This document shows positions 7,080-29,753 of a stretch of 64,000 bases of DNA, piece after piece. Made by a program: the position numbers and the translations under genes. Source of the DNA: Myxococcota bacterium (lineage in GTDB: Bacteria; Myxococcota_A; UBA9042; PHBI01; JAWLBL01); assembly GCA_041687695.1 (NCBI GenBank), contig JAWLBL010000007.1, positions 96,001-160,000 on the forward strand, given 5' to 3'. Below the pieces are notes generated by a model. The model did not search any database. It had not been told where the DNA came from and was given only the letters and a program-made list of their open reading frames with translations. The stretch's first letter is position 1; each line of letters starts with the position of its first letter.

Positions 7080-7937
7080 ATGCGTGCGTCGATGCGGTGG
7101 ATGGTGCTGGTGGCCGGCCTGGCCCTGACGACCGCCTGCGGCGGCGGAGACGGAGGCAGCGCGGACGTGCCGCCCGCCGAGACCGTCGATGCACCGGAGG
7201 ACGTGCAGGGCGCGCCCCGGCTCTCGGTCAGCCCGACCTCCGTGGCGTTCAGCGCGGTCCAGCCGCGCACGACGGCCGAGCGGCTGGTCACGGTGGCCAA
7301 CACCGGCGCGGCGCCGCTCGAGCTGACCGGGTTCGTGCTGCAGGGCGACAAGTCGTTGGCGCTCCAGGCCGCCGGCCAGGTCTGGGACGCGACGGCCAAG
7401 GAGGTCGAGCAGGCCTTCGATCCCGTCATTGTCGTCCCGGTCGGCGGCAGCCTCGGCTTGACGGTGCGCTTCACGCCCATGGACGCTACGCCGGCCGCGG
7501 CGACGCTGACGCTGCGCTCGAACGACCCCGACGCTGGCGAGGCCGCGGTCGTCACGCTGGTCGGCAACCCGCCGGCGCCGTGCCTCGAGGTGACCCCCAA
7601 GCAGGTGAGCTTCGCCGCCGCGGCCGGCGCGGCCGAGCAGACCCTGACGCTGACGTCCTGCGGGCAGGAGCCGCTGACCCTCACCGGCCTGGCCCTGGAC
7701 GCCTCCAGCGCCGCGGTCTTCTCGCTGGATCTGGGCGGGCTGGGCGGCCTGCCGGCGGGGACGAGCGCCCTGACCGAGCAGGACGACCCGGTCGTGCTGG
7801 CCAGCGGCACCTCGGGGACCGTGGCCGTCCGCTTCGACCCCGACGCCGGCGGGGCGGCCGCGGCTCAGGGCCTGGTCCGGATCGCCTCGGACCACGCGAT
7901 CCCTCTGGTCATCGTCCAGGTCGCCGCTACGAACTGA
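7080..7937 (+). CDS. Lipoprotein with two Ig-like ASH/choice-of-anchor D-type domains
   Basis: GGAGG RBS; lipobox LTTA-C; repeated VSPTSVAF...VANTGAAPL...VRFTP...LRSNDP pattern. Confidence 0.7.
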   Translation: MRASMRWMVLVAGLALTTACGGGDGGSADVPPAETVDAPEDVQGAPRLSVSPTSVAFSAVQPRTTAERLVTVANTGAAPLELTGFVLQGDKSLALQAAGQVWDATAKEVEQAFDPVIVVPVGGSLGLTVRFTPMDATPAAATLTLRSNDPDAGEAAVVTLVGNPPAPCLEVTPKQVSFAAAAGAAEQTLTLTSCGQEPLTLTGLALDASSAAVFSLDLGGLGGLPAGTSALTEQDDPVVLASGTSGTVAVRFDPDAGGAAAAQGLVRIASDHAIPLVIVQVAATN

Positions 7938-9759: not shown

Positions 9760-11600
9760 GAGCGCCTCCGGCGGCCGACGGTCGCCGCGCGGCCGACCAG
9801 CAGGCCCAGCGACAGGACCAGCAGCCACTCGAGGGCGCGCGGGCTGGCGCCGCAGCCGCCGACCTCGGGGCGGGCGTTGTCGAGCGAAGGCGCGGCGCCG
9901 GGCGGACGGATCTCCAGCTGCGCCGGCAGGCTGGGCGCGCCGGGCTGCGCCTTGTCGAGCAGGGCGTCGATCTCGGCGACCTGCTCGAGGTGGAAGCGGA
10001 TGGGGGCCCCCGACTCGTCGAGCACCTCGGGGAACTCGAGCGCGGGCGCGCCGGGGACCGGCGGGATGTCGAAGAAGGTGCAGCCGCCGTCCGCGCACGC
10101 CACGGTCTGGCTGTGGCCGTTGGGGTAGGTGCGCGTGTGGAACTGGTTGCAGGCGTCGTCCTGGAACTCGCGCACCCGCAGGGTGTTGAGCCGCGGCACG
10201 TCGGGCAGCTCGGGGTTGAAGGCGAACAGCGGGTCGCGGACCATCTCGTCGGGGTCGAGCATGGTGAAGAAGCGGGTGACGGTCAGGCCGTCGAGCATCG
10301 GCACGATCGACCCGAGCGGGGTCAGCACGGTCGCCTCGAGCCGGGCGTGCACGGCCGCGAGGTCGACTTCGACGGCCCCGTCACCCGTCGCCGCGCTCTT
10401 GGCGACCGCGACGTACGACGCCAGCCGGTCCTTCGGCGCCTCGGACGGCGCGCCCACGGGCTCGCAGTCGCCCTCGGGGTGGTCGGCGGGGTGCCAGCAC
10501 ACGAGATCGTCGAGCACGTCGACCACCATGGGCGCCTCCTCGACCAGGCTCTGGAGCGCCGAGGCCAGGGTGTGGAGCGTTTCGGCCTGTCGAATGTCGA
10601 GGAGCACCGCCGGCGAGACGACGGTGCCCTGGTCGAGCGGGACCACGCCCGACGACTCGGTCACCCAGGCGCGGCCGCTGGCCGTGTCGACGGCGTCCTT
10701 GATGACGTCGAAGTAGTTGGCGACGTTGGGCCAGTCGAGCGCCATCGGGTTGACGACGGCGTGGATGAAGTTCTTGGGCACGGCGCGGCCGTCGCCGGCG
10801 ACGAACACGGTGATGGGCATGTCGGGGGTGGCCGCGATGCCGGTCAGGCGCAGCGGCACGCAGGGGGCCTGCTCGCCGAAGGTGAGGGCGATGGGGCGGA
10901 GATCGCCCGTGCTCTTACCGCTCTGCAGTCGGATGCCCAGGAAGACGTAGCCCAGCCCGATGTAGTGTCCTAGCAGCTGCTTGGACGCGGGGTCCTGGTA
11001 GTAGCCGTTGGCGTTGAGCCAGTCGAACAGGGCGTCCGAGGACTTGGCTTCGAGGAGCTGGGCGTCGTAGGGGCCGACCCGCGCCGCTTCGACGACGTCG
11101 ACGCCGGGACGAGGAGCCGCCTGGGGCGGCGCGCCGAAGTCGCCGCCTCGGACGGAGCCCGCCTGGTCGGCGCAGCCGCCGAACTGGAAGTCACTGCACT
11201 CGTCGTTGCTGTCGAACTGGCTGTTCAGGTTGAACTGGGGCCGCGTCGCGCTGTCGAGGGCGTCGAAGAGCTTGGTCGACGACACGGTGACCGCCCGCTC
11301 GAGCGGCAGCGGCTGGCCCTGGGCGTCCTGCGGCAGCTCGGGCAGCGGCAGCAGCCACGCGAACTCGGTGGGCTCGCCCTCGTAGCGCACCTCGATGTGC
11401 ATGGTGACCAGCTCGCCGTGCTTGATGAACACGATGCGCTCGCCGGCCTGATAGATGGGCGACTGGGTGGCGGCGTTGCAGAAGAAGCCGCCGCAGGCGA
11501 GGGCGGGCTGCGGCGCCAGGAGGGCGGCCGACCACGCGGCGACGAGGGCGGCGAAGACGGCGGGTCCGGGGGCGCGGCGCAGGCCTTGCGTTCGCATCAT
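9756..11600 (-). CDS. DUF2330 domain protein with MYXO-CTERM-like tail (paralog 1)
   Basis: Same motifs as the neighbouring gene; ends EVGGCGAS..LEWLLVLSLGLLVG...RRRRS. Confidence 0.85.
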   Translation of the reverse strand: MMRTQGLRRAPGPAVFAALVAAWSAALLAPQPALACGGFFCNAATQSPIYQAGERIVFIKHGELVTMHIEVRYEGEPTEFAWLLPLPELPQDAQGQPLPLERAVTVSSTKLFDALDSATRPQFNLNSQFDSNDECSDFQFGGCADQAGSVRGGDFGAPPQAAPRPGVDVVEAARVGPYDAQLLEAKSSDALFDWLNANGYYQDPASKQLLGHYIGLGYVFLGIRLQSGKSTGDLRPIALTFGEQAPCVPLRLTGIAATPDMPITVFVAGDGRAVPKNFIHAVVNPMALDWPNVANYFDVIKDAVDTASGRAWVTESSGVVPLDQGTVVSPAVLLDIRQAETLHTLASALQSLVEEAPMVVDVLDDLVCWHPADHPEGDCEPVGAPSEAPKDRLASYVAVAKSAATGDGAVEVDLAAVHARLEATVLTPLGSIVPMLDGLTVTRFFTMLDPDEMVRDPLFAFNPELPDVPRLNTLRVREFQDDACNQFHTRTYPNGHSQTVACADGGCTFFDIPPVPGAPALEFPEVLDESGAPIRFHLEQVAEIDALLDKAQPGAPSLPAQLEIRPPGAAPSLDNARPEVGGCGASPRALEWLLVLSLGLLVGRAATVGRRRRS

Positions 11601-13085: not shown

Positions 13086-14126
13086 TCAGCCCAGCTTGTA
13101 GTGGAACGGCACCTGCACGGCGCGGCGATCCCACTCGAGCTCGGACGGCGGCCGCGGAACGCGTGTCACGCGGCGGACGGCCTCGAGCGCGGCCTCGTCG
13201 AGCACCCCGTGGCCCGACGAGCGCGCTATGCGAGCCTCGCGGACGTGGCCGTCGCCGTCGATGACCAGCTCGAGCACCACCGTGCCCTGCAGCCCCTGGC
13301 GGACGGCGGCGCGCGGGTAGGAGAAGTCGCGCTTGAGGGCCTTTCCGACCTGGCGGATGTACTTGCGGAGCAGGGCCCGCGCGTCGACGGTCGGCTGCTC
13401 GCCCACGCCGTCGCCCGGCCCTTCGCCGGTGCCGGCGCCGTCGCCCACCTGGTCGCCGCTGGGGACGCCGGTCCCGTCGGGCGCCCCGTCGGGCGTGCCG
13501 CCGTTGCCCTCGGGGTCGGCGTCGGGCGCGGTCGCGGCGGCGGTCTGCTCGGGCGCGGGCGGTGCCTCGGGCGCGGCGGTGGACGCGACGTCGTCGGCCT
13601 TGGTCGGCGCCAGCGGGGCGGGCTGCTTCTTGGCCGCGCGCTTGGGCTTGCCGCGCTTGGGCGGCTTGGGCGCCTTGGGTGGGTCGACCTTGGCGACGGC
13701 CGGTGGCGGCGCGGACGCACGCTGCGGGGGCTTGGCCACCGCGACCGCCTTGGCGGGCGGCTCGGCCGGCTTGGGCGCCTCGGGGGGCGGGGCGGGGGGG
13801 CGCACCTCGGCGCGGGGCAGCTCCTTGGGCGCCGGCGCCGCGTGCTCGACGCGCAGCACCTCGAGCACGCGGCGGTGCGCCTGGCGTCGCAGCTGGGTGC
13901 GGTCCTCCTCGGGGGCGAGGGCGGCGGCGGTCAGAAAGCCGGCGTGGACCAGGAGGGCGACGACGAAGGCGACGAGGCTGGCGTAGGTGTCGCGCCGCTG
14001 GGCGACGCTGCGGGGGTGGTGCCGCAGCGCGGCGCGCAGAGCGCGGCGGTCGCCGGCGTCGGGCGCGAGGTCCGGTCGCTCGATCTGATCGCGCTGGGTC
14101 GCGGTTGGCTGCTCGAGTGGCTGCAT
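13086..14126 (-). CDS. tonB: TonB family energy transducer
   Basis: TM helix with LLVHAG, Pro/Lys/Ala-rich linker, YPRAAVRQGLQGTV...SSGHGVLDEAAL C-terminal domain. Confidence 0.9.
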   Translation of the reverse strand: MQPLEQPTATQRDQIERPDLAPDAGDRRALRAALRHHPRSVAQRRDTYASLVAFVVALLVHAGFLTAAALAPEEDRTQLRRQAHRRVLEVLRVEHAAPAPKELPRAEVRPPAPPPEAPKPAEPPAKAVAVAKPPQRASAPPPAVAKVDPPKAPKPPKRGKPKRAAKKQPAPLAPTKADDVASTAAPEAPPAPEQTAAATAPDADPEGNGGTPDGAPDGTGVPSGDQVGDGAGTGEGPGDGVGEQPTVDARALLRKYIRQVGKALKRDFSYPRAAVRQGLQGTVVLELVIDGDGHVREARIARSSGHGVLDEAALEAVRRVTRVPRPPSELEWDRRAVQVPFHYKLG

Positions 14127-14184
14127 TCACCCACCTGTCGGGTCACGGACACTAGGGGATCGGATGTGCGCGCGCAAGGCTCTT

Positions 14185-14203
14185 GAAAGTGAAAGTCAAT
14201 AAC
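14185..14203. promoter_or_regulatory. Putative Fur box 1 (GAAAGTGAAAGTCAATAAC)
   Basis: 13/19 match to GATAATGATAATCATTATC by manual count; AT-rich island upstream of tonB. Confidence 0.55.
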
Positions 14204-14247
14204 GGCAATCGACCGACCCGGTCGCCTTTCCGGTTGACCTGCTTATC

Positions 14248-14266
14248 GATTTCGATTCTCAATATC
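14248..14266. promoter_or_regulatory. Putative Fur box 2 (reverse complement GATATTGAGAATCGAAATC)
   Basis: 14/19 match to Fur consensus on the minus strand; lies just downstream of a TTGACC -35-like hexamer (14234-14239). Confidence 0.65.
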
Positions 14267-14365: not shown

Positions 14366-15937
14366 ATGGGGCTCAAGGGAGCCCGTGGGGTCGTGGCGGC
14401 CGCGCTGCTGTTGGGCACCCCGGCCTGCGACGACGACGGCGAGGTGACGCCGACGACCGACACGCAGGTCGACACGGGCGCGGACGTCGATCCGGGCGAC
14501 ACGATCGACGGTGACGTCGCGGACGACGTCGGGCCGGACACCAGCGAGGACGTCGTCGAGCAGCGCCCGACGACCTACACCTTCCCGAGCAAGCCCGTGT
14601 CGGGCGCCGACAGCGTCGACTACGACGGCCAGGTGCTGCGGCAGGTGCTGCTGCAGAACCTCACGTCCTACATCGGCGGGCTGACGGCGGCGATCGACGG
14701 CGCCACCTTCGCCCCGACCCAGGAGGGCGAGGTCGTCGCGGCCCTCGACTTCTACTTCCGCTTCGACGGCGACTCCTACGGCGACGAGCCGCACGGCGTC
14801 TCGACCACCCCCGCGCCGCTGCAGTCGACCTACGCCGACGTCTCGGCCGGCCGCGACATCGTGGGCAAGCTGGCGGGCAACGACGCCGCGACCGATCACA
14901 AGGACTGGTCGACCGAGTTCGTCGGTTGGTCCGACGCGTCCATCGCCGCCCACGGCGGCTCCATCACCTCGCCCGAGGGGCTCGTCGTCGCCTTCTTCGA
15001 GACCCTCGAGGCCCAGGCCCTCGCGCGCGTCGACGGCGACATCCCGACCGGCACCGACGGCGCGCACCTGCCGGTGTACGTGACCCCCACCGGCCTCGAT
15101 CTGCAGCAGCTCATCCAGAAGACGCTGCACGGCGCCCTGTCGTTCTCGCAGGCCGCCGACGACTACCTGGACAGCGAGCACCCCGGCAAGGGGATCCTGG
15201 CCTCCAACGTGGCCGCCGAGGGCGCGAAGTACACGCCGCTGGGCCACGGCTGGGACGAGGGCTTCGGCTACTGGGGCGCCGCCCGCGACTACGCCGCCTA
15301 CTCGGACGAGGAGCTCGCCGGCAAGGGCGGCGACGCCGCGCGCAAGCTGGGCTACTTCGACACCGACGGCGACGGCGCCGTCGACCTCACCCAGGAGTTC
15401 AACTGGGGCGTCTCCACCAACGCGGCCAAGCGCGACCTCGGCAGCCACGCCGACGCCAAGACCGACTTCACCGGCGACCTGTGGAACGCCTTCCTCGAGG
15501 GCCGCTGGATCATCCACCAGGCCGACGGCGAGCTGACCCCCGACGAGCTGGCCGCGCTCGAGGCGCAGCGCGACATCGCCGTGCTGACCTGGGAGAAGGT
15601 CATCGCCGCGACGGTCGTCCACTACATCAACGACACGCTGAAGGAGATGGCGAAGTTCGACACGGACGCCTACAGCTTCGCCAAGCACGCCAAGGGCTGG
15701 TCCGAGATGAAGGGCTTCGCGCTGGCCTTCCAGTTCAACCCGGCCTCGCCGCTGTCGGACGCCGACTTCGCCAAGTTCCACCAGCTGGTGGGCGACGCGC
15801 CGGTCCTCGAGACCGCCTCGGCGGACGACATCGCGGCGTATGAGGCGGACCTCCTCGAGGCGCGGGCGCTGCTCGGAGCGGCGTATGAGTTCGCCGCGGC
15901 CAACCTTGGGGATGACAACGGCGCCGGCGGCTGGTAG
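14366..15937 (+). CDS. DUF4856-like lipoprotein, probably iron-regulated
   Basis: Lipobox GTPA-C; Asp-rich linker; VDYDGQVLR, GLDLQQLIQKTLHGA, HGWDEGFGYWG and HAKGWSEMKGF motifs; position before imelysin. Confidence 0.75.
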   Translation: MGLKGARGVVAAALLLGTPACDDDGEVTPTTDTQVDTGADVDPGDTIDGDVADDVGPDTSEDVVEQRPTTYTFPSKPVSGADSVDYDGQVLRQVLLQNLTSYIGGLTAAIDGATFAPTQEGEVVAALDFYFRFDGDSYGDEPHGVSTTPAPLQSTYADVSAGRDIVGKLAGNDAATDHKDWSTEFVGWSDASIAAHGGSITSPEGLVVAFFETLEAQALARVDGDIPTGTDGAHLPVYVTPTGLDLQQLIQKTLHGALSFSQAADDYLDSEHPGKGILASNVAAEGAKYTPLGHGWDEGFGYWGAARDYAAYSDEELAGKGGDAARKLGYFDTDGDGAVDLTQEFNWGVSTNAAKRDLGSHADAKTDFTGDLWNAFLEGRWIIHQADGELTPDELAALEAQRDIAVLTWEKVIAATVVHYINDTLKEMAKFDTDAYSFAKHAKGWSEMKGFALAFQFNPASPLSDADFAKFHQLVGDAPVLETASADDIAAYEADLLEARALLGAAYEFAAANLGDDNGAGGW

Positions 15938-16044: not shown

Positions 16045-17265
16045 ATGATGACAGTACGTTCGGTCGTCCGCGGCGGCATCGCCCTGCTGGCACTCGCGGC
16101 CGTCGCCTGCGGCGAGGGCGCCGCGACGAGCACCGACGCCAGCGGCGACGCGGCGCCCGTGACCGGGGCCGCCGTCAAGCGTGCCGCCCTCGAGAGCTGG
16201 GTCGCCAACGTCATCCAGCCGACCTACACCGAGTTCCGCGCCGCCGCGGCCGCGCTCGAGGCGGCGGCGGCCGACCTCGCCGAGGATCCGACCGACGCCC
16301 GTCGCGAGGCCGCCCAGGACGCCTGGCGCGCGGCCATGGTCGTCTGGCAGCGCGCCGAGGTCTTCCAGTTCGGCCCGGCCGGCGTCATGGGCAAGGTGCA
16401 GGGCGGAGAGGATCTGCGCGACGCCATCTACTCGTGGCCGCTGGTCAACCGCTGCCGCGTCGACCAGGAGACCGCCGAGCAGAGCTACGTCGACGTCGCG
16501 GGCTTCGCCTCCGAGCCGGTCAACGTCCGCGGCCTCGACGCCCTCGAGTACCTCCTGTGGAACGAGGACGCCGGCAACGCCTGCGCCCCGAACAGCACGC
16601 TCAACACCTCGGGCGCCTGGGCGGCCCTGTCGGCGGCCGAGGTCACGGCGCGTCGGGCCGCCTACGCGCACACGCTGTCGCAGCTGCTCGTCGGACACGC
16701 CGACGCGCTCGTCGCCGCCTGGCAGGTCGCGCCGGGCACCTTCGGGACCGAGCTGGTCACGGCCGGGGAGGGCAGCGCCGCCTTCATGAACCTGCAGGAG
16801 GCGCTGAACGCGGTCTCCGACGCGCTGTTCTACGTGGACCAGCAGACCAAGGACGCCAAGCTGGCGCGTCCGGCCGGGCTGGCCAACTGCGCAGAGGCGA
16901 CCTGCCCCGACGCGGTCGAGTCTCCGTTCGCGCGCGCCTCCAAGGAGCAGATCCTTGCGAACCTGCGCGGGTTCCAGGCCTTCTACCTGGGCGCCCCGGC
17001 TGGCGAGGAGGGCACCGGGTTCGACGACATCCTGGTCGCCGTCGGCGCCGAGACCCTGGCCGCCGACATGGCCACGCGCATCGAAGACGCCATCACGGCC
17101 GTGGCGGCCATCCCGGGGACGCTGACCGAGGCGCTCGCGGCCGATCGCGACGCCGTGGTCGCGGCCCACGCGGCCGTCAAGGGCGTGACGGATCTCCTCA
17201 AGACCCAGTTCCTGAGCGTGCTCGACCTCGAGCCGCCGGCCTCGGCGGCCAGCGACAACGACTGA
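16045..17265 (+). CDS. Imelysin family (peptidase M75-like) lipoprotein
   Basis: Lipobox AVA-C; AQDAWR, FQFGP, RGLDALEYLL, KDAKLARPAG, VESPFA, C-terminal SDND. Confidence 0.85.
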   Translation: MMTVRSVVRGGIALLALAAVACGEGAATSTDASGDAAPVTGAAVKRAALESWVANVIQPTYTEFRAAAAALEAAAADLAEDPTDARREAAQDAWRAAMVVWQRAEVFQFGPAGVMGKVQGGEDLRDAIYSWPLVNRCRVDQETAEQSYVDVAGFASEPVNVRGLDALEYLLWNEDAGNACAPNSTLNTSGAWAALSAAEVTARRAAYAHTLSQLLVGHADALVAAWQVAPGTFGTELVTAGEGSAAFMNLQEALNAVSDALFYVDQQTKDAKLARPAGLANCAEATCPDAVESPFARASKEQILANLRGFQAFYLGAPAGEEGTGFDDILVAVGAETLAADMATRIEDAITAVAAIPGTLTEALAADRDAVVAAHAAVKGVTDLLKTQFLSVLDLEPPASAASDND

Positions 17266-17271
17266 GCGCGC

Positions 17272-18711
17272 ATGACCCGAGACGGAACTCGCCTCCAGCG
17301 TCTCCTAGCCCGCGCGGCCCACCCGGTCGACGCGGGTTCGCTCGTCGCCTTCCGGGTGGCCTTCGGGCTGCTCATGGCGGTCGCGGCGGCGCGCTTCGTC
17401 GCGAGCGGCTGGATCGAGGCCTTCTTCGTCGAGCCGCGCTTCTTCTTCAAGTTCTGGGGGGCCGGCTGGGCCGCGGTCCCGCCCGCCGAGGTCATCTACG
17501 CCATGTTCGGCGTCATGGCCCTGGCGGCGGTCGGCTTCGCCCTGGGCGTGTTCTACCGCGCCTGTCTGGCCGTCTTCCTGGTCCTGTTCACGGCCGTCGA
17601 GCTCTTCGACGTCACCAACTACCTCAACCACTACTACCTGGTGAGCCTGCTCGGGCTCATCCTGTTCGTCCTGCCGCTCGGCCGCGCCTGGTCCGTCGAC
17701 GCGTGGCGCCGCCCCGACCGCGCCATCACCCACGTCCCGGCCTGGATGGTGTGGCTCGTGCGCTTCCAGGTCGCCGTGGTCTACACCTACGCCGCCGTCG
17801 CCAAGATGAGCGAGGACTGGCTGGTGCACGCGCAGCCGCTGAACCTGTGGCTGCACGCCCGCAGCGACTTCCCGCTGCTGGGCCCGTGGTTCGAGCGCTG
17901 GGACGTTGCGCTGGCCATGAGCTGGGCCGGGTTCCTGCACGATCTTTTGGTCGCGCCGCTGCTGCTGTGGCGCCGCAGCCGGCCTTGGGCCTACGTGATG
18001 CTCCTCGGCTTCCACGGCCTCACGGGGGCGCTGTTCAACATCGGCCTTTTCCCCTTCATCATGACCCTCGCCGCGACCACCTACTTCGAGCCCGACTGGC
18101 CGCGGCGGGTGGCCGCCCGCCTGCGCCGGGTGCTCGGGCGTCCCGCGGCCGAGGCGCCCCCCGTCCGGCTGCCGCAGCTGCCGACGGGCTGGCGGCGCAC
18201 CCTGGGCGTGTCGACCCTGGCCGCGTACGCCGCGCTGCAGGTCCTGATGCCGCTGCGGTCGCTGGCCTACCCGGGCCCGGTCATCTGGCGCGAGGAGGGG
18301 ATGCGCTTTTCGTGGAAGGTGCTGGTCCGCGAAAAGAGCGGCAGCGTGACCTACCGCGTGCGCGAGCCGAGCGGCCGCGAGCACCTGGTGTCGCCCGCCC
18401 AGTACCTGACGCGCCGTCAGGAGCGCGAGATGTCCGGCCAGCCGGACCTCATCGTGCAGCTCGCCCACCACGTCGCGGCCGACTTCCGGGCGCGCGGCTT
18501 CGGCGAGGTCGAGGTCCGGGCCGAGGCCCTGGTGTCCATGAACGGCCGCGCGCCGTCCCCGCTCGTCGACCCCGAGGTCGACCTCGCCAGGGTCACGCCC
18601 GGCCTCGCCGTCGCCGACTGGATTCTGCCCGCCCCCACCACCGCGCCGCCCCGACTCGGCGCGCGCCCTTCCGCTCCACCGGGCCCCCCGCCCGACGAGG
18701 TCTCCCCATGA
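17272..18711 (+). CDS. HTTM domain protein, vitamin K-dependent gamma-carboxylase homolog
   Basis: [71 protein letters not shown]...LVDPEVDL. Confidence 0.88.
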
Positions 18712-21050
18712 TCAGGCGCTCGCGCCTCTCGGCCGTCCTGTCCGCCACCGCCCTCCTCGCCGCCGGCGCCCCGCTGGCGCACGCCGACGACCCGGCGCCT
18801 GCGCCCCCGGCCGCGCCGGCCGAGCCGGTCCAACCCGAGCCCGCGCCGGCCGACGCCGCCGAGGACGCCGACTTCGACGACGACGCCGACGCCGAGGTGG
18901 CGCCGCTCGACGACGAGCAGCCGGACGACTTCGAGGAGGTCCGCAAGGGCGCCTACCGGATGAAGGGCTTCGAGATCACCTACCGGCCCGAGGACGTCTT
19001 CAAGGAGGGCGGCTCGGTGCAGGTGCTCGACCCGGCGCTGCTCGGGCGGCTCGGCCACGACGACCCCAACCGGCCGCTGATGATGGTGCCGGGCGTGTAC
19101 ATCCGACAGGAGGACGGCTACGGGCTGCGGCCCAACATCGGCCTGCGCGGCGCCAGCAGCGAGCGCAGCAGCAAGGTCACCCTGATGGAGGACGGCATCC
19201 TCTTCGGGCCGGCCCCCTACTCGGCCCCGGCCGCCTACTACTTCCCGATGATGGCGCGCATCGATCAGGTCGAGGTGCTCAAGGGCCCGGCCGCCGTCCT
19301 GGCTGGCCCGCAGACCATCGGCGGCGCCATCAACCTGGTCACCCGCGACATCCCGCGCGAGCTGTCGGGCATGGCCAGCGTCGGCTACGGGATGTTCGAC
19401 ACCCTGCGCCTGCACGGCCACGCGGGTGGCAGCCTGCCCTGGGGCGGCCTGCTGGTCGAGGCGGTGCACCTGGGCACCGACGGCTTCAAGACCCTCGACG
19501 GCGGCGGCGACACCGGCTTCGACAAGACCGAGGCCATGCTCAAGGGGCGCCTCAACTCGGACCTCGCGGGCGACGTCTACCACCAGCTCGACCTCAAGCT
19601 CGTCTACTCGCGCGAGGTGTCGAACGAGACCTACCTGGGGCTCAGCGACGCCGACTTCCGCGCCGACCCCTACCGCCGCTACCGCTCCAGCGCCCTCGAC
19701 CGCATGGACCTCGAACGGCTGGGCGGGCAGCTCGCCTACTCGGTGGCGGTGGGCGACGACCTCGACCTGGGCCTCACCGTCTACCGCCACACCATGAGCC
19801 GCGCGTGGCGCAAGCTCAACCGCTTCCGCGGCGGCCCCGAGCTGCTCGAGATCCTGTCCGACCCGACGACGCCGCTCAACCGCGCCTACTACGACGTGCT
19901 GACCGGCGCCGAGGACTCGGCGAGCGACCCCGAGACGCTGCTGGTCGGCACCAACGCCCGCGAGTTCGTCGTCATGGGCGCCGACGCCAAGGCGCGCCTC
20001 GCCTTCGACACGGGCGCGGTCGGCCACGAGCTGCGCGCCGGCGTCCGCTACCACTGGGACAGCATCGAGCGGAACCACTACGAGGACCCCTACGCGATGA
20101 CCGCCGGCGACCTGACGGCGACCGGCGAGCCGCGCGTCACCAACACGCGCAACCGCGGCACTTCGGGGGCGCTGGCGGCCTTCGTCGCGCACGCCCTGGA
20201 CGTCGAGGGGCTGACCGTGCGCACCGGCGCGCGCGCCGAGGTCATCGACATGGCGCTCGAGAACCTCGACACGGGCGCCGTCGCCGACAGCGACCAGGCG
20301 GCGCTGCTGTTCGGCCTCGGCGCCCACTACGCGCTGACGCCGACCTTCGGCGTCCTGGCCGGCGTGCACCAGGGCTTCAGCCCCGTGGCCCCCGGCCAGG
20401 CCGCGGGCGTCGACCCCGAGCGCAGCGTCAACTACGAGCTGGGCGCGCGCTACCTGGACGCCGAGGCCGGCTCGACCGCCGAGGTCATCGGCTTCTACAA
20501 CGACTACTCGAACCTGGTGACGCAGTGCACGCTGTCGGCGGGGTGCCGGCCGACCGATCTCGACGCCCAGTTCAACGCCGGCGAGGTCGACGTGGTCGGC
20601 GTCGAGCTGCTCGCGGCCCACGCCTTCGACCTGGGCCCGGTGGCCCTGCGCCTGCGCGGCACCTACACCTTCACCCACGCCCGCTTCGGGACCTCGTTCA
20701 CCTCGGACAACCCCGTCTACGGGGTGGTCGAGGCGGGCGACCCCGTGCCCTACATCCCCGAGCACCAGGCCTCGGCCCTGGTCGGGGTCGAGGGCGAGGT
20801 CTGGGGCGTCGACGTCACGGCCACCGTGCTGGACTCGCTGCTCGAGGGCGCCGGCGCGCTGAACGGGCGCGAGAGCGACGCCGCCGTGCTGGTGGACGTG
20901 GCGGCGCGCTACCGCCCCATGGACTGGCTCGAGCTGTCGGTCCGCGGCGAGAACCTGACCGGCGCCGAGCCCGTCGTCTCGCGCCGGCCCTACGGCGCCC
21001 GCCCCGCCAAGCCGCTGCACGTCCACGGGGCCATGCGCGTCTTCTTCTGA
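18708..21050 (+). CDS. TonB-dependent receptor (FecA-like)
   Basis: ATGA overlap with HTTM gene; signal peptide; plug motifs [22 protein letters not shown] and [21 protein letters not shown]-terminal Phe. Confidence 0.92.
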
Positions 21051-21069: not shown

Positions 21070-21648
21070 TCAGGCCGCGCGGCGCTCGGGCGTCGCGTCG
21101 GCCTGGGCCTTGCCGCCGGCGATGCGGCGGACGAGCAGGGCCAGCGTCACCAGCATCCCCAGGGCGTAGCCGCCGGTGGACGGCAGCGCGAGCCACTCCA
21201 GGGCCTCCTTGGCGGCCCCGGTGCCGCCCAGGCCCGGCGCCATCTGCCCGGCCAGCAGCCAGAACACCCCGTAGCCGAGGGCGCCGAAGCCCAATCCGAT
21301 GGCGGCCAGCTGGGCGAGGCGCCGCGGGCCGCCCACGAAGGCCAGCAGGAAGATGGAGGCCAGGGCGGCCGTGCTCATCGCGCCGGCGTGCAGGTGGGCC
21401 CGCTTGTAGTAGCTCCAGCTCTTGGCGGTCACGGCCTTCATCTTGGCCTCGTCGCCGCCGTAGACGTCGGCGAGGGCGGCCTGCCCGCTGGCCTCGAGGC
21501 CTTGCTTGAGGCTGTCCTCGGCCGCGCCGAAGGCGAGCCCGACGCCGACGCTGAACAGGGCGGCCAGCAGCGCCAGGACGAGCCCCGCCGCGAAGGGGCG
21601 GAGGTGGCGGTCGTACAGGTCGGCGGAGGCGGTCGTGGCAGCGGACAT
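21070..21648 (-). CDS. Hypothetical integral membrane protein (about 4 TM, RAHLHA motif)
   Basis: GGAG RBS; hydrophobic segments; [14 protein letters not shown]. Confidence 0.7.
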
Positions 21649-21831
21649 GGGGGCTCCTGGATGGGGGCGCGCCGGACCGCGCGCGTCGGGGGAGGGGGCC
21701 GTTCGGCCGAAGGAAGGCGAGTATACACGCGGCGTTGCGTCGCGCGAGCGCGGAGCGGAGGCGCAGCCGTCGGTTGAGCGCCCGCGACGCGGTGGGGTAG
21801 GGTGCGCCGGGCCGTGGACGCGAGCGGGGGG

Positions 21832-23811
21832 ATGATGGGCGAGGTGTTCGAGGGCGAGCGGGGCCGTTACGAGGTGCTCGGGGCGTTGGGCGAGGGCGGC
21901 ATGGGGGCCACCTTCGTCGTGCGCGCCGAGGCGACGGGCGAGCGGCTGGCCGCCAAGGTCCTGAGGATGGACCGGGTCGACGACTGGAAGGCCGTCGAGC
22001 TGTTCGAGCGCGAGGCCAAGGTCCTGGCCGGCCTGGATCACCCGCGGATCCCCAAGGTCGTCGACACCTTCCGGGCGGACGGCGGGACCCGCCTGGGGCT
22101 GGTGCAGACGCTGGTGAACGGCCGGACGCTGCAGTCCCACCTGGACGAGCACCGCAGCGTGTCGGCGGGCGAGCTGGTGGACTGGCTGCGGCAGGGGCTG
22201 GAGCTGCTGGCCTTCCTGCACGGCCGCGTGCCGCCCGTGGTGCACCGGGACGTGACGCCGCGCAACCTGTTGGTGGCCGACGGGCAGCTCTGGCTGGTGG
22301 ACTTCGGGGCGGTCAAGACCGCGCTCAGCGGCCAGGCGACCGTCCACACGGCGGTGGGCACCTTCGGGTACATGCCGCCCGAGCAGATCATGGGCCAGGC
22401 CGGCCCCGGCGCGGACATGTACGCCCTGGGCGTCACCTTCGTGGCCCTGGCGGCGGGGCTCGAGCCGGGGCGGCTGCCGCTGGACGGCGACTCGGGCCGC
22501 ATCGACGTGCGCCGGGCGGTCGGCGACGCGACCGGCCTGCCGGGCGCGGTGGTGGACGTGCTCGAGGCGATGACGCGGCCCGGGCTGGGGCAGCGCCTGG
22601 TCGACGCGCGCGAGGCGCTGGCGCGGCTGTCGCGCGAGCCCGAGGCCGCCTCACCGGCGCGGACGGGGAAGGCGCCGGCGCGTCGAGTGAAGGTGCGCCA
22701 CCTGCTGGGCGCGGCGCTGCTGTGCTGGGTGGTCGGGGCGTACGCAGCGCAGCGCTGGCCCGGCGAAGGCGAGGTGGGGGCGCTGGGCGGGTGGTTCAGC
22801 GGCCACCCGAGGCTGGTCAGCGCGGTGACGGGGGCCCTGTGGGGCGACTACGCGGCGACGCTGGGGCCCAACTACGTCCGAGCCGTGGCCTTCGGGCCGG
22901 ACGGGCGCACGCTGGTCTCGGCGGCCACGGACGACGTGCTGGCCTGGGACGTGGAGGGCGAGCGGGTCGACGCCGTGGTCGAGGCGTTCGAGGACCAGGG
23001 CGGGTGGGGCGTCCAGTGGCTGGGCTTCAGCGGGGACGGCCGCAGCGTGGTCGTCGCCACGGCGGAGGACGCGCGCGTCGTCGACGTTCAGGGGTGGACC
23101 GAGCGGGCGCGGGTGGCGGTGCGGGATCTGTCCGGCGACGTCCTGTCGTACGCCTGGCGGCCGACGTTCCTGGACGGCGTCGCGGCGGCCGACGGCGGCG
23201 CGCGGGTGGCCTGGGCGGTGGATGCGACCGTGCTGGTGGTGGACCCGCTGGCGGGGCGGGTCGTTCGCAAGGTGCCGACGGGTGGACAGGACGGCGCGGC
23301 GCTGGGCGCGCGAGGCGAGCGGCTGGTCGTCTGGCGTCACCGGGAATGGGCGACCTACGAAGCGGCGACCTCGACGGTGACCGTGTGGGACGTGGCGACC
23401 GGGCTCGAGGTCACGCGCTTCCTCGCGCCCAAGCGCGTGCAGTCCCTGGCGATGACCGACGACGGGGCGCGGCTGGTGGTGGTGGACTCGGCGGGGCTCG
23501 CCGTGTGGGACGCCCAGCAGGGGACCCCGCTGAGGGCCATCCCGACGACCCCGCCCGGCTACGACCAGGCGCGGGTGGCGCTGAGCCCCGACGGCCGGCT
23601 GGCGGCGACCCCGCGCGACGGCGGGGTGCGGGTCTTCGCGCTGGACTCGGGCGAGCAGGTCGCGGCGTTCGGGGTGCGCCCGCGCGGCTACTTCGTGTGG
23701 GACGTCGACGCGATGACCTTCGCGCCGGACGGCCGCACCCTGGCCACGGCGGCGACCGACCAGGTGGTGAGGCTGTGGCGCGTGCCGGAGGCGGGCGCGG
23801 TCAGTAGATGA
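21832..23811 (+). CDS. Ser/Thr protein kinase with TM helix and C-terminal WD40 repeats
   Basis: LGEGGMG, AAK, HRDVTPRN, DFG, GTFGYMPPEQ; then AFGPDGRTL/LSPDGR/FAPDGRTL...VRLW repeats. Confidence 0.9.
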   Translation: MMGEVFEGERGRYEVLGALGEGGMGATFVVRAEATGERLAAKVLRMDRVDDWKAVELFEREAKVLAGLDHPRIPKVVDTFRADGGTRLGLVQTLVNGRTLQSHLDEHRSVSAGELVDWLRQGLELLAFLHGRVPPVVHRDVTPRNLLVADGQLWLVDFGAVKTALSGQATVHTAVGTFGYMPPEQIMGQAGPGADMYALGVTFVALAAGLEPGRLPLDGDSGRIDVRRAVGDATGLPGAVVDVLEAMTRPGLGQRLVDAREALARLSREPEAASPARTGKAPARRVKVRHLLGAALLCWVVGAYAAQRWPGEGEVGALGGWFSGHPRLVSAVTGALWGDYAATLGPNYVRAVAFGPDGRTLVSAATDDVLAWDVEGERVDAVVEAFEDQGGWGVQWLGFSGDGRSVVVATAEDARVVDVQGWTERARVAVRDLSGDVLSYAWRPTFLDGVAAADGGARVAWAVDATVLVVDPLAGRVVRKVPTGGQDGAALGARGERLVVWRHREWATYEAATSTVTVWDVATGLEVTRFLAPKRVQSLAMTDDGARLVVVDSAGLAVWDAQQGTPLRAIPTTPPGYDQARVALSPDGRLAATPRDGGVRVFALDSGEQVAAFGVRPRGYFVWDVDAMTFAPDGRTLATAATDQVVRLWRVPEAGAVSR

Positions 23812-25717
23812 CGGGCAGGACGTCCGGGGTCACGATGGCCGCGTCGCGGATGATGACGAAGCCGTTGGTGGCCGGGACGCCGCCCAGGGTCATCATGGCG
23901 TAGTCGACGCGGACGCTGGCCGACGACGGGTAGACGTCGACGTTGGGCGTCACGGTCAGCCCGGGCGTGAAGGCGACGATGCGCGCCGAGGTGACCTCGC
24001 CCGTGACGAGGTTCTGCACGACGTCCTGCGAGAGGATGCGCGGGTTGCCCAGCAGCGCGGCGGTGGTTGCGGGCTCGATGAGCTCCGTCTGCGTCAGGAT
24101 GGGCGGGTAGCTCGACACGACGCCCACCGGCGGGTCGAAGGTCGACAGGAACCCCTGGTCGCGCAGGGCCGAGGTGAAGGTGGCCAGCTGGGGCTGCGAG
24201 GTGGGCACCGCCGCGAGCCGCCCCGGCGGGATGGTGACCATGTCGATGACGTGCGTCACGCCGCCGACGCCCTGCAGGTGGGTGACGCGGATGAGCATCT
24301 GGTTGAGGGCGACCACGTCCTCGCCGCGGTCGATGAGCAGGGGCACGCCGGGCTCGGTGGCGACCTCGGTCACCGTGGTGACGCCAGCGACCGGGGCGTC
24401 GACGCCGGTGGTCGCGACGACCAGCGCGTCGGTCAGCGCCTGGGTGTTGGCGACCAGCGGCTGGTAGGCGGCCGGCAGCTCCGCGAGGGGGCCGCCGCTC
24501 GGGGCCGTGACCGCCGCGGGGTCGACCTCGGCGGGGGCCAGGACCAGATCGGGGTCGGCGATGGCCTCGGCCAGGAGCTGCACGTCCTCGATGCCGAAGG
24601 CGTCGGTGATGAACGCCTCCTCGTCGGTGACCGGCGGCTGCAGGTAGACGCTGCCCAGGCCGTGGACTACGCCGTTGACGGCCACCGCGTCGAGGGACGT
24701 CACGGCGCCCTCGCCGACGAACAGCGCCTCGCCGTCGGCGGTGATCTCGAGCGTGTCGCCGCCGACGGTCGTCAGGCGGCCGGACGCCGCCAGCTCGTCG
24801 CCGAGGACGCGGCCCCGCACGATGAAGCCGCGCAGCAGCTGGGCCAGCGCGTCCGGGTCGGCCAGCAGGGCCTCGCGATCGGCGGCCGGCAGCGCGGCGA
24901 AGGCCTGGTCGGTGGGCGCGAGCACGGTGTAGGGCCCCTCGCCTTCGAGCAGCGGGACGAGGCCCGTCTGCTCCAGCGCGTCGAGCAGGACGGTGTAGGT
25001 GCCGGCTTCGGCGAGCGCCTCGAGCAGCGTCGGCTCGGGCGGCTCGGCGACCAGCACCCGGTCGGTCAGGTGCGCGAGGCCGTTGGTGGCCACCAGATCG
25101 GGCGTGACGACCTGCCCGTCGGCGACGACCAGCGCGGCGCCGTTGGCGGTGACCGGCAGCTCCTCGCCGGCCAGGGTCGTGACGGCGCGCTGGTTGGCGA
25201 CCGCGGTCGCAGCGAGCGCGCCGCCGGCGACGTGGCGGCGGACCAGCTGGGTCAGGGCCTCGCGGTCGGTGCGCAGGGTCTCCAGCGTCTCCTCGGGCAG
25301 GAGCTGGAAGGCGGCGTTGGTGGGGGCGAAGACGGTGTAGGGGCCGCCCGTGTCCAGGGCGTCGGCGAGCCCGACCGCCTGGACGGCCGAGACGAAGGTG
25401 CTGAGGTCGTCGCGCGAGGACAGGACGTCGAGCAGGCTGCCTGCGGTCGGGGCCGCGAGCTCGGCGGGCGCGAGGACCTGGTCGCCAGGAGCGCCGGCCT
25501 GCGCGACGGCGGGCGGCTGGGTCTCGAGGAAGGTCAGCGCGGGCACGGGCTGGTCGGGCACCTGCAGGATGACGAGATCCTGGGCGGGCGCGGCGCCGAA
25601 GTCGAAGGATACGTCGCCGTCCGCGCCGTCGCCCGAGCCGGGTAGCAGGGTGGAGGCCAGGGCCAGCGCCAGCGCGGCGCCGATTCGGCCTCTGCGGGTG
25701 CCGTGGGTGCGGGTCAT
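23801..25717 (-). CDS. Fasciclin (FAS1) domain protein
   Basis: GPYTVFAPTNAAF and GPYTVLAPTDQAF, ATNGLAHL and AVNGVVHG; signal peptide. Confidence 0.88.
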   Translation of the reverse strand: MTRTHGTRRGRIGAALALALASTLLPGSGDGADGDVSFDFGAAPAQDLVILQVPDQPVPALTFLETQPPAVAQAGAPGDQVLAPAELAAPTAGSLLDVLSSRDDLSTFVSAVQAVGLADALDTGGPYTVFAPTNAAFQLLPEETLETLRTDREALTQLVRRHVAGGALAATAVANQRAVTTLAGEELPVTANGAALVVADGQVVTPDLVATNGLAHLTDRVLVAEPPEPTLLEALAEAGTYTVLLDALEQTGLVPLLEGEGPYTVLAPTDQAFAALPAADREALLADPDALAQLLRGFIVRGRVLGDELAASGRLTTVGGDTLEITADGEALFVGEGAVTSLDAVAVNGVVHGLGSVYLQPPVTDEEAFITDAFGIEDVQLLAEAIADPDLVLAPAEVDPAAVTAPSGGPLAELPAAYQPLVANTQALTDALVVATTGVDAPVAGVTTVTEVATEPGVPLLIDRGEDVVALNQMLIRVTHLQGVGGVTHVIDMVTIPPGRLAAVPTSQPQLATFTSALRDQGFLSTFDPPVGVVSSYPPILTQTELIEPATTAALLGNPRILSQDVVQNLVTGEVTSARIVAFTPGLTVTPNVDVYPSSASVRVDYAMMTLGGVPATNGFVIIRDAAIVTPDVLPVIY

Positions 25718-25862
25718 GGCTGCTCCGTGCCGCGGTGGCTGCCGGTGGGGCGCAGGGACACGGTAGGCACGAGAAGTCGAGTCTCCGAGCGGGGTTGCGG
25801 TGGTCGGGCGGCGGGCTGGGCGTGCTTAGGGTCGGACCTGGACGAGGAGGCTGGAGGGGGGG

Positions 25863-27230
25863 ATGAGCTCACGTGGTCTGGAGCGGAGCCGGCAGCAGGC
25901 GGTCGACGGCTTCATGGAGCGTCTCGTCCGTAGGACGCCTCACGAGGAGATCTTCCACCAGGCCGTGCGTTCGGTGGTCGAGGACGTGATGCCCGTCGTG
26001 CTCGAGCGGCGGGAGCTGGCCGAGGCCGCGATCCTCGAGCGGCTCGTCGAGCCCGAGCGGATCCACGGCTTCCGCGTGGCCTGGCAGGACGACGCCGGGC
26101 GCGTGCAGGTCGACCGCGCGTGGCGGGTGCAGTGGAGCGGCGCGTTGGGGCCCTTCAAGGGCGGCCTGAGGTTCCACCCGTCGGTGGACCTGGCCGTGCT
26201 GAAGTTCCTGGGGTTCGAGCAGACGGTGAAGAACGCCCTGACGGGGCTGCCGCTCGGCGGCGCGAAGGGCGGGGCGGACTTCGACCCCAAGAGGCGGTCC
26301 GAGCGCGAGGTGATGCGGTTCTGTCAGGCGCTGATGACGCTGCTGCACCGCGTCATCGGCGTCGACGAGGACATCCCGGCCGGGGACATCGGCGTCGGCC
26401 AGCGCGAGATCGGCTGGCTGTTCGGGCAGTATCGGCGCCTGACGCATCGGTTCGCGGGCGTGGTGACCGGCAAGGGGCGCGAGATCGGCGGCAGCTGGAT
26501 GCGGGTCGAGGCGACCGGGTACGGGCTGGTGATGTTCGTCGAGCGGATGCTGGAGCGGCGTGGTGACGGGCTGCGCGGCAAGACGTGCGTCATCAGCGGC
26601 GCGGGCAACGTGGCGCTGCACGCGGCGGAGCGGGCGGTCGCGTGCGGCGCGCGGGTCGTGACCCTGTCGGACTCGGACGGGTTCGTCCACGACCCCGACG
26701 GGCTCGACGCGGACAAGATGGCGTGGGTGAAGGCGCTCAAGCTCGAGCGGCGGGGGCGCATCCGCGAGTACGCCGAGCGCTTCGACGTGCAGTACCGCGA
26801 GGGGCAGGCGCCCTGGGGCGTGCCCTGCGACGTGGCGCTGCCGTGCGCGACGCAGAACGAGCTGGACGGCGGCGCCGCGCGGAGGCTGGTCGACGGCGGC
26901 TGCGAGGTGGTCGCCGAGGGGGCCAACATGCCGTCGACCGCCGAGGCGGTGGCGGTCTTTCGCGCGGCCGGGCTGCTGTACGCGCCCGACAAGGCGGCCA
27001 ACGCGGGCGGCGTCGCCGTGTCGGCCCTGGAGATGGGGCAGAACGCGGTGGGCCTGCCGTGGTCGCGCGAGCGCGTGAACGGGACCTTGGCGACCCTGAT
27101 GGGCGACATCCACGCGCGCTGTGTCGAGCACGGCTGCGATCGCGGCGGCCACGTCGACTACGCGCGCGGCGCCAACGTGGCCGGGTTCCTGCGGGTCGCC
27201 GAGGCCATGCTGGCCCAGGGCGTCATGTGA
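25863..27230 (+). CDS. gdhA: NADP-specific glutamate dehydrogenase
   Basis: GPFKGGLRFHPSV, LPLGGAKGGADFDPK, DIPAGDIGVG, EATGYG, SGAGNVA, ALPCATQNE, KAANAGGV. Confidence 0.95.
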   Translation: MSSRGLERSRQQAVDGFMERLVRRTPHEEIFHQAVRSVVEDVMPVVLERRELAEAAILERLVEPERIHGFRVAWQDDAGRVQVDRAWRVQWSGALGPFKGGLRFHPSVDLAVLKFLGFEQTVKNALTGLPLGGAKGGADFDPKRRSEREVMRFCQALMTLLHRVIGVDEDIPAGDIGVGQREIGWLFGQYRRLTHRFAGVVTGKGREIGGSWMRVEATGYGLVMFVERMLERRGDGLRGKTCVISGAGNVALHAAERAVACGARVVTLSDSDGFVHDPDGLDADKMAWVKALKLERRGRIREYAERFDVQYREGQAPWGVPCDVALPCATQNELDGGAARRLVDGGCEVVAEGANMPSTAEAVAVFRAAGLLYAPDKAANAGGVAVSALEMGQNAVGLPWSRERVNGTLATLMGDIHARCVEHGCDRGGHVDYARGANVAGFLRVAEAMLAQGVM

Positions 27231-27245
27231 GCCGCCGGGCTGCGC

Positions 27246-29621: not shown

Positions 29622-29753
29622 GCGTGTCCATCCCGTGCAGGCGTGCAGCGACCGGCGAGGGTCCCCATCCCGAGCGCCGATCAATCGGGCAGTCTAGTCA
29701 CACGCGTCGCGACGAATCCACTGCAATCGGACGTCTCGCGTCGCGCCGCGCGG

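Follow-up and report, generated by a model that had tools for sequence, protein, structure and literature searches.

A bacterial GGCX-family protein is predicted to receive the conserved Asp-x-Asp tail of an imelysin-like lipoprotein encoded beside it

INTRODUCTION

Bacterial homologs of the human carboxylase GGCX include MloH of malonomycin biosynthesis, reportedly studied by Law et al. in 2018, and a Leptospira protein for which Rishavy et al. are said to have found no carboxylation, a result that may reflect tests on animal substrates. MloH, from Streptomyces, is described as carboxylating an aspartyl residue (PMC12647623; bioRxiv 10.64898/2026.08.19.745780; PMC12186529). In the accessible parts of this literature, the small-molecule intermediate used by MloH is the only substrate given for a bacterial GGCX homolog, and we found no bacterial protein target for the family. 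Leptospira homologs are reported to keep K218 and to lack K217 and substrate activation, with epoxidation uncoupled from the substrate (PMC4555120; bioRxiv 2025.02.09.637231). Two further systems are built around the HTTM domain. The giant-virus epoxidase (VKE) lacks GGCX residues 374 to 418 and pairs HTTM with a desaturase-family enzyme (PMC13486548), and in a split complex of DUF5819 with HTTM-DCC1 the HTTM core carries the catalytic lysine (bioRxiv 10.64898/2026.08.19.745780).

A second set of described systems concerns iron. In Riemerella anatipestifer, the consecutive tags RAYM_09779 to RAYM_09794 cover a receptor, a protein listed as "vitamin K-dependent gamma-carboxylase," an imelysin, and a hypothetical protein (PMC5609570, Table 4). 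These four genes were up 2.1- to 3.1-fold without iron, and the rise was also seen in a fur mutant; the accessible text of that report names the genes without suggesting what they do or act on (PMC5609570). Operons with the order IcmP/IrpA, diheme DUF1111 protein, PA4372-type imelysin, and DUF1513 protein are described in an iron uptake context (PMC3143127; bioRxiv 072470). Beyond the Riemerella table, we found no open-access literature linking HTTM to imelysin, although supplements to the DUF-complex preprint may list such operon pairs, and none on DUF4856 or on an HTTM domain with a TonB-dependent receptor and iron. Here, we describe a myxococcotal locus in which a GGCX-family gene directly follows an imelysin gene, and we name a candidate protein substrate and site.

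RESULTS

Domain composition and fold

The window is a 64,000-nucleotide stretch of Myxococcota assembly GCA_041687695.1 (contig JAWLBL010000007.1, positions 96,001 to 160,000), and all coordinates below are counted within it. An open reading frame on the + strand (17272 to 18711; ATG at 17272, TGA ending at 18711) encodes a protein of 479 amino acids. Pfam placed an HTTM domain (PF05090; E = 1e-75; 254.7 bits against a cutoff of 27.7) at residues 17 to 276 and a VKGC lumenal domain (PF22777; E = 4e-41; 141.1 bits against a cutoff of 27.7) at residues 310 to 455, and a search of NCBIfam assigned no family. The sole phmmer matches in the PDB were human GGCX constructs (eight distinct sequences, E of about 1e-37), with residues 9 to 453 pairing with GGCX residues 49 to 504. 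Superposed on human GGCX with Foldseek, as the first-pass annotation had suggested, the AlphaFold2 model (pLDDT of 95, 118-row alignment) gave a TM score of 0.79, a Z score of 33.3, and an rmsd of 3.6 Å over 453 residues (3 to 471). Among the 500 fold matches listed, 16 passed an E value of 0.001, all of them GGCX, and the next fold had a Z score of 7.0.

The structural match stops at GGCX residue 527 of 758. The protein ends near that residue, which accounts for the shorter length already remarked in the first-pass annotation and for the absence of both clamp B and the C-terminal domain. Of the bipartite propeptide clamp described for GGCX, which consists of clamp A and a jelly-roll clamp B (PMC12647623), only clamp A is present. 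Because hydropathy and charge counts fit the GGCX topology only roughly, a periplasmic orientation of the active site rests on homology. Relatives are plentiful in bacteria (1,566 clusters at 50% identity with E ≤ 1e-30), and none was found in the viral contigs queried with the HTTM protein. The protein belongs to the GGCX structural family; we class it as a variant, one that likely works like GGCX, because the features of the Glu/propeptide enzyme represented by Y395, K217, and clamp B are not kept.

Active-site residues

All five carboxylase-type motifs that the first-pass annotation had picked out across the membrane and soluble domains are present (residues 117 to 123, 173 to 183, 247 to 260, 343 to 351, and 421 to 426/431 to 438) and align with the GGCX segments named at the time. 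The proposed equivalence of lysine and histidine residues was likewise borne out by the phmmer alignment (K178, N119/H120, and H248). GGCX numbers were counted along that alignment, with an offset of 31 between its two chain numberings, and conservation was counted in 117 of 119 close matches and in 149 of 150 cluster representatives (33 to 55% identity). K178 (codon 17803 to 17805, + strand), equivalent to the catalytic base K218, is invariant in 117/117 close homologs and 149/149 representatives, which upholds the claim of a retained lysine base. N119 and H120 (codons 17626 to 17631, + strand), equivalent to the substrate-carboxylate ligands N159 and H160, occur in 117/117 close homologs and in 147/149 representatives, with gaps in the other 2. 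The CO2-pocket residue F260 (GGCX F299) is kept in all sequences, including 149/149 representatives, as is W183 (W223; 117/117 and 149/149). F247 and H248 (F286 and H287) are found in 149/149 and 148/149 representatives, and D224 (D263) is Asp in 107 and Glu in 10 of the close homologs and is kept in 141/149 representatives.

In addition, W348, R353, and K355 are invariant among close homologs, K355 (R406) being present in 117/117 of these and in 141/149 representatives. GGCX W399, R406 (as Lys), and W501 also have equivalents, R436 maps uncertainly to E386 across an alignment gap, and the counterpart of GGCX residues 374 to 418 is present and conserved (residues ∼323 to 365). Residue equivalence, predicted fold, and strict conservation together fit an active quinol- and O2-using enzyme. 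The roles of the catalytic residues are known from GGCX (PMC12647623, PMC13187478), and the motif observation by itself is not new because conservation of the key residues in bacterial orthologs, myxobacterial ones included, was published before (PMC12647623, Discussion and Fig. 6b legend).

Several positions differ from GGCX. Ala177 stands in place of K217, the first of the paired GGCX lysines. The Glu-anchoring Y395 is Met344 (Met in 113/117 close homologs; Phe, Met, His, or Tyr among representatives, with Tyr in 25/149), and G396 is Arg345. N290, S300, and E82 are changed to T251, P261, and F42, and basic residues are gained at R41 (117/117 and 131/149) and R345 (117/117 and 124/149). Loss of Y395, N290, S300, or E82 is reported to impair GGCX function (PMC12647623, PMC13187478). 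Their replacement, together with the absence of K217 as in the Leptospira homologs, would argue at the sequence level against carboxylation. The loss of K217 itself is compatible with catalysis because the K217A substitution is reported to leave GGCX activity intact (bioRxiv 2025.02.09.637231).

Operon context

The HTTM gene is the third in the order DUF4856, imelysin, HTTM, and TonB-dependent receptor, with tonB transcribed divergently (13086 to 14126, − strand; assigned by homology). The DUF4856 gene (14366 to 15937, + strand, start codon inferred) encodes a 523-amino-acid lipoprotein with lipobox Cys21, which matched no PDB sequence. The HTTM start codon lies 7 bases past the imelysin stop, and its stop overlaps by 4 bases the start of the receptor gene (18708 to 21050, + strand; 780 amino acids), whose best NCBIfam match was FecA, far under the cutoff of that family. 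No inner membrane iron transporter or reductase was recognizable among the operon genes scanned, and a scan of 11 proteins encoded between 9.8 and 29.7 kb turned up no polyketide synthase (PKS) or nonribosomal peptide synthetase (NRPS).

We surveyed the best 80 of 498 confirmed loci, seeking neighbors by tblastn. By these counts, which include kin and hence are not independent, an imelysin accompanied the HTTM gene in 77/80 loci, a close homolog of the receptor in 55/80, and DUF4856 in 46/80. A complete upstream imelysin frame was present in 76 loci and ended within 300 bases of the HTTM start in 74 of them. Of the four loci with no such frame, three break off within 260 bases of that start, and the fourth (L028) has tonB upstream. 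An even sample of the phylum (151 genomes, again including kin) held 37 HTTM places at E ≤ 1.8e-70, with imelysin alongside in 35; one of the remaining two stands at a contig start, and the other has no imelysin. Judging by record titles, the pairing occurs in Myxococcota, Bacteroidota, SAR324, and Planctomycetota, and it persists when DUF5122 replaces DUF4856 or when an IrpA-type imelysin and a diheme oxidoreductase precede the pair. DUF4856 and the receptor also carry acidic N-terminal linkers. We ranked these below the imelysin tail as candidate substrates because their genes are less constant companions (46/80 and 55/80) and because the DUF4856 linker showed no conserved column, although they may still act as substrates.

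Other features of the surveyed loci and of the window were recorded as well. A DUF5122 β-propeller protein occupies the DUF4856 position in six loci. Full-length homologs that have no imelysin neighbor occur on contig G081:C87 (L140) and on a Paracoccus albus plasmid (L143), with a DEAD-box helicase or a DUF393 gene nearby. Within the window, two similar tandem frames with overlapping stop and start (7927 to 11600, − strand) have C-terminal ends that are alike and resemble membrane anchors, the copy at 9756 to 11600 being DUF2330. The distal part of a frame convergent on the receptor gene (21070 to 22347, − strand) resembles a small hydrophobic membrane protein, and the region after the operon (21802 to 29684) encodes a Ser/Thr kinase with a WD40 propeller, a fasciclin-repeat protein, a glutamate dehydrogenase, and a PF11617 repeat lipoprotein rich in Cys and Asp.

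A motif resembling a Fur box upstream of the operon

De novo motif discovery upstream of 30 other loci yielded a 19-base AT-rich near-palindrome. Its two best sites in the 64-kb window, with scores of 26.7 and 18.9 bits in a GC-rich genome where AT-rich sites stand out easily, both fall between tonB and DUF4856 (14183 to 14201 and 14244 to 14262). We take this motif to resemble a Fur box. The next-best place outside the operon promoter region was at 44547 to 44565 on the − strand (12.2 bits).

The imelysin tail and the predicted complex

The imelysin-like lipoprotein (16048 to 17265, + strand, start codon inferred; PF09375) has 405 amino acids and lipobox Cys21. It is of the PA4372/IPPA type that lacks the conserved His (a family described in PMC3143127), with Foldseek matches to 4ecg, 7xrx, and 3pf0; of its Gly-x4-Glu motif, G162 is kept in 55/55 and E167 in 46/55 aligned neighboring imelysins, and there is no conserved His. 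Its C-terminal tail (residues 399 to 405; 17242 to 17262, + strand) ends in Asp403-x-Asp405, and both aspartates are invariant in 55/55 aligned neighboring imelysins. An Asp-x-Asp end was present in 75 of the 76 complete upstream imelysins, the exception (L027) looking frameshifted. With imelysin modeled alone, the pLDDT of the tail falls to 63; the last six residues are reported as disordered in the IPPA crystal (PMC3143127).

We modeled HTTM residues 1 to 462 with imelysin residues 38 to 405, using for each a 56-row alignment from the same loci (55/80 loci passed the coverage filter). The complex reached an ipSAE of 0.87, against 0.00 for the best of three controls, which did not include DUF4856 or the receptor; the score may draw on likeness to solved GGCX-substrate complexes. 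Of 157 solved complexes, 116 attain this ipSAE mark, as do 2 of 215 mismatched pairs, a calibration that is roughly applicable to alignments such as those used here. The runs shared 90% or more of their contacts, and the partner had a pLDDT of at least 91.

The interface comprises HTTM residues 117 to 120, 255 to 260, 344, 349 to 358, 371 to 377, and 420 to 428 and imelysin residues 378 to 393 and 399 to 405. In the predicted complex, the last imelysin helix (378 to 393) rests on HTTM 354 to 358 and 420 to 428, and imelysin 278 to 280 contacts the HTTM strand 371 to 374 (GGCX Y425/L426). HTTM 371 to 377 maps to GGCX Y425 to V430, residues reported to touch the propeptide (PMC12647623). The tail and the equivalents of the Glu/CO2 pocket (HTTM 117 to 120, 255 to 260, 344, and 349 to 352) all lie in the interface, which is defined here as residue lists rather than as pairs of tail and pocket residues or an atom-level pose. 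The model supports binding of imelysin to the HTTM protein with the acidic tail reaching the active site. The first-pass annotation had called the natural substrate unknown and had overlooked a strong candidate encoded 7 bases upstream; imelysin, with its acidic tail, is a candidate partner and likely substrate of the HTTM protein.

Other proteins in the same position

A reciprocal survey in the phylum sample found 38 strong imelysin places (E ≤ 4.3e-38). HTTM stood alongside 18 of these and a PF04116 diiron enzyme of the fatty acid hydroxylase family alongside 17, one had neither, and two lay at a contig end; both enzymes together were found at none of the 38. The His motifs were intact in the four PF04116 proteins translated. 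The Asp-x-Asp end was kept in 12/12 hydroxylase loci inspected and at the locus with neither enzyme. It was also kept in 4/4 proteobacterial imelysins followed by DUF1513, a predicted β-propeller with no meaningful PDB match, and in one more with no DUF1513 annotated next, in an inspection of 6 of 21 plasmid matches. The possibility that tail conservation is specific to HTTM was thereby ruled out. The Asp-x-Asp tail marks one imelysin type, which is then followed by one of three unrelated proteins.

In a tree of 28 imelysins (two sequences, L095 and L109, are not in it), the HTTM/hydroxylase label requires at least three changes, possibly one gain and two losses, which are forced by well-supported branches. 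Because the swap needs at least three changes and the tail is independent of HTTM, the job of this slot is apparently possible without carboxylase chemistry. Either the three slot proteins have separate ways of arming or using the tail, or the job of the slot is something other than carboxylation.

Further observations concern the hydroxylase and the weaker imelysins. The hydroxylase is fused in frame to the receptor in seven loci and to imelysin in two, and 11 of 19 PF04116 matches lie within open frames of more than 1,000 amino acids. The fusions run through signal-like or lipobox segments, a sequence feature that suggests polyproteins cut by signal peptidases. At 16 loci with weak imelysin matches and no HTTM nearby, the imelysins are tailless, and in 10 they are followed by a diheme protein; 1 of the 16 holds a second imelysin cut by the contig end within an Asp-x-Asp-type tail. 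Eleven loci (L124 to L133 and L139) share an operon of an unannotated gene for 420 to 535 amino acids and a tailless imelysin, with a diheme oxidoreductase in 10/11; the copies of the first gene that were scanned had no Pfam match at an E value of 1e-8. HTTM coexists with a diheme oxidoreductase in eight loci.

Quinone supply

The first-pass annotation had named menaquinol as the quinol. This does not carry over readily to the present genome (99.3% complete, 63 contigs), in which MenB, MenD, MqnA/D, MqnC, MenG, and UbiG gave no match over cutoff. A MenA-like gene (L123:1483-3075) scored 89.6 bits, under the cutoff of 102, with no men genes among its scanned neighbors, and four VKOR genes were over cutoff. 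MenB or MqnA/D was present in 15/18 genomes with HTTM in the slot and in 16/17 with the hydroxylase, which rules out that the enzyme swap tracks menaquinone availability; two other HTTM genomes of the 18 had no MenB or MqnA/D match. Menaquinol is a plausible cofactor for the family; for this genome it is unproven because no men or mqn marker was over cutoff, and salvage or another quinone would be needed. The four VKORs could recycle quinone. With an isolated MenA-like gene, four VKORs, and no menaquinone or ubiquinone marker, quinone salvage is possible. Two genomes of one family (G041 and G065, f30; 2.7 to 2.9 Mb) each carry two imelysin-linked HTTM genes and gave no MenB or MqnA/D match.

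DISCUSSION

We propose that the HTTM protein drives carboxylation of an aspartate in the imelysin Asp-x-Asp tail with quinol, O2, and CO2, turning the tail into a tethered iron chelator. The proposal is tentative, and we give it somewhat less than an even chance. By comparison with GGCX, the HTTM protein would sit in the inner membrane with its active site facing the periplasm, K178 would deprotonate the quinol, addition of O2 would generate a strong base, N119/H120 would hold the substrate carboxylate, and F260 would line the CO2 pocket. The last imelysin helix is predicted to dock on the soluble domain, and the tail to reach HTTM 117 to 120, 255 to 260, and 344. With Y395 and E82 lost and R41 and R345 gained, the pocket may have been retuned away from Glu and toward an Asp tail that is short and polyanionic, and the imelysin body may do the work of the propeptide and of clamp B, which is missing here. 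The lipoprotein would be modified during its stay at the inner membrane, and the product, a malonate-type residue, would bind Fe(III) and serve the TonB uptake system encoded alongside.

We favor carboxylation of the tail because there is no variation in the base, the carboxylate ligands, or the residue of the CO2 pocket and the tail is predicted to reach them, and because basic residues have been gained in the pocket and MloH offers a second-hand precedent for aspartate. A link to iron comes from the Riemerella genes, which rise when iron is withheld, and from the Fur-like sites at this locus, although the Riemerella rise also takes place in the fur mutant. Weighing against tail carboxylation are the presence of the tail beside other slot proteins, the changed GGCX residues, and the menaquinone markers looked for and not found over cutoff in this genome. 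Covalent arming of the tail, counting carboxylation and hydroxylation together, we hold to be somewhat more probable than its absence. A wider reading, in which bacteria arm a lipoprotein Asp-x-Asp posttranslationally as a ribosomal tethered siderophore, using the carboxylase (on Asp) in some lineages and repeatedly swapping in unrelated proteins, namely the diiron hydroxylase and perhaps DUF1513, that act on that tail through different chemistry, is conceivable and on balance unlikely.

The same docking could serve with no covalent change if the tail brings Fe(III) beside the quinol at a quinol-driven ferric reductase or iron-release site. The predicted docking fits this equally well. The quinone of GGCX lies ∼5 to 6 Å from the substrate (PMC12647623, PMC13187478). 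The operon genes scanned include no recognizable inner membrane transporter or reductase for iron, and a different metal/redox membrane protein can take over the slot, the tail being kept whatever the partner. Nevertheless, we consider a reductase or release site clearly unlikely: in eight HTTM loci a diheme oxidoreductase means that a redox partner is already there, the base and the carboxylate-binding residues are invariant, and the basic R41, R345, and K355 would go better with a metal-free polyanion than with one that carries a metal.

Next in likelihood, and improbable in our judgment, is an extension of the first-pass reading: an uncoupled quinol epoxidase or oxidase, or an MloH-like carboxylase of small molecules or lipids, with imelysin as a structural subunit or merely coregulated. 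K217 is absent, as in the Leptospira homologs described as lacking substrate activation, giant-virus homologs are proposed to be epoxidases coupled to desaturases (PMC13486548), solitary homologs such as L140 and L143 exist, and the genome has four VKORs. However, the region equivalent to GGCX 374 to 418, missing in the viral enzymes, is kept here with W348, R353, and K355 invariant among close homologs, the predicted complex puts the tail into the substrate pocket, and the 11 proteins scanned around the locus include no NRPS or PKS.

Less likely again, and doubtful, is oxygenation of the tail to β-hydroxyaspartate (+16 Da), convergent with the diiron hydroxylase, each yielding a siderophore-like group. 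β-Hydroxyaspartate is an Fe(III) ligand. Two O2-activating membrane families occupy one slot exclusively (18 versus 17 of 38), the hydroxylase is in frame with imelysin in two loci, and other residues stand at the positions of Y395, N290, and S300 of the GGCX pocket. On the other hand, the literature yielded no hydroxylation by a GGCX-family member, and the CO2-pocket residue F260 is invariant. Active sites of related desaturases are reported to face the cytoplasm (PMC13486548), which would place the PF04116 site there, whereas the HTTM site is expected in the periplasm. Moreover, the hydroxylase is fused more often to the receptor (seven loci) than to imelysin (two), and because receptor fusions outnumber imelysin fusions, fusion reflects gene order. 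Finally, a catalytically dead membrane anchor that holds imelysin, which the several changed GGCX activity residues and the lack of a menaquinone pathway found in this genome might suggest, is very improbable given that K178, W183, F247, and F260 are invariant in 149/149 representatives at 33 to 55% identity and that 15/18 HTTM-slot genomes have MenB or MqnA/D.

What is new here is a named candidate protein substrate with a named site, which makes the question directly testable. If tail carboxylation is correct, vitamin K-type protein carboxylation would serve bacterial iron capture, in parallel with metal binding by Gla; it would hint at an ancestral role of GGCX and explain the conserved imelysin tail. 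An unmodified tail would instead indicate a quinol-driven iron-release step.

Compared with human GGCX, the HTTM protein has the same predicted fold and equivalents of K218, N159, H160, W223, D263, F286, H287, F299, W399, R406, and W501. GGCX differs in having clamp B and the C-terminal domain, as well as K217, Y395, G396, N290, S300, and E82, and in using propeptide-type substrates, of which none was seen here; the candidate here is a folded lipoprotein with a C-terminal Asp-x-Asp. As described, MloH acts on a PKS-NRPS intermediate, whereas no PKS-NRPS genes were found among the 11 proteins scanned at this locus. The Leptospira homolog, again going by descriptions, resembles the HTTM protein in keeping K218 and lacking K217. 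In the DUF5819 and HTTM-DCC1 complex, the lumenal part is encoded by a separate gene and DCC1 is fused, while here a single chain holds PF05090 and PF22777 only. A desaturase-family enzyme accompanies HTTM in the giant-virus VKE system; in the loci surveyed here a hydroxylase replaces HTTM.

Riemerella anatipestifer RAYM_09779 to RAYM_09794 form the same receptor, carboxylase, and imelysin set, and the fourth gene there is known as hypothetical. The IcmP/IrpA-DUF1111-imelysin-DUF1513 operons share the His-less imelysin and the Asp-x-Asp end, and DUF1513, a predicted β-propeller, stands where this locus has a membrane enzyme. The two arrangements meet in hybrid loci, in which HTTM occupies the DUF1513 position of IrpA/diheme-type operons.
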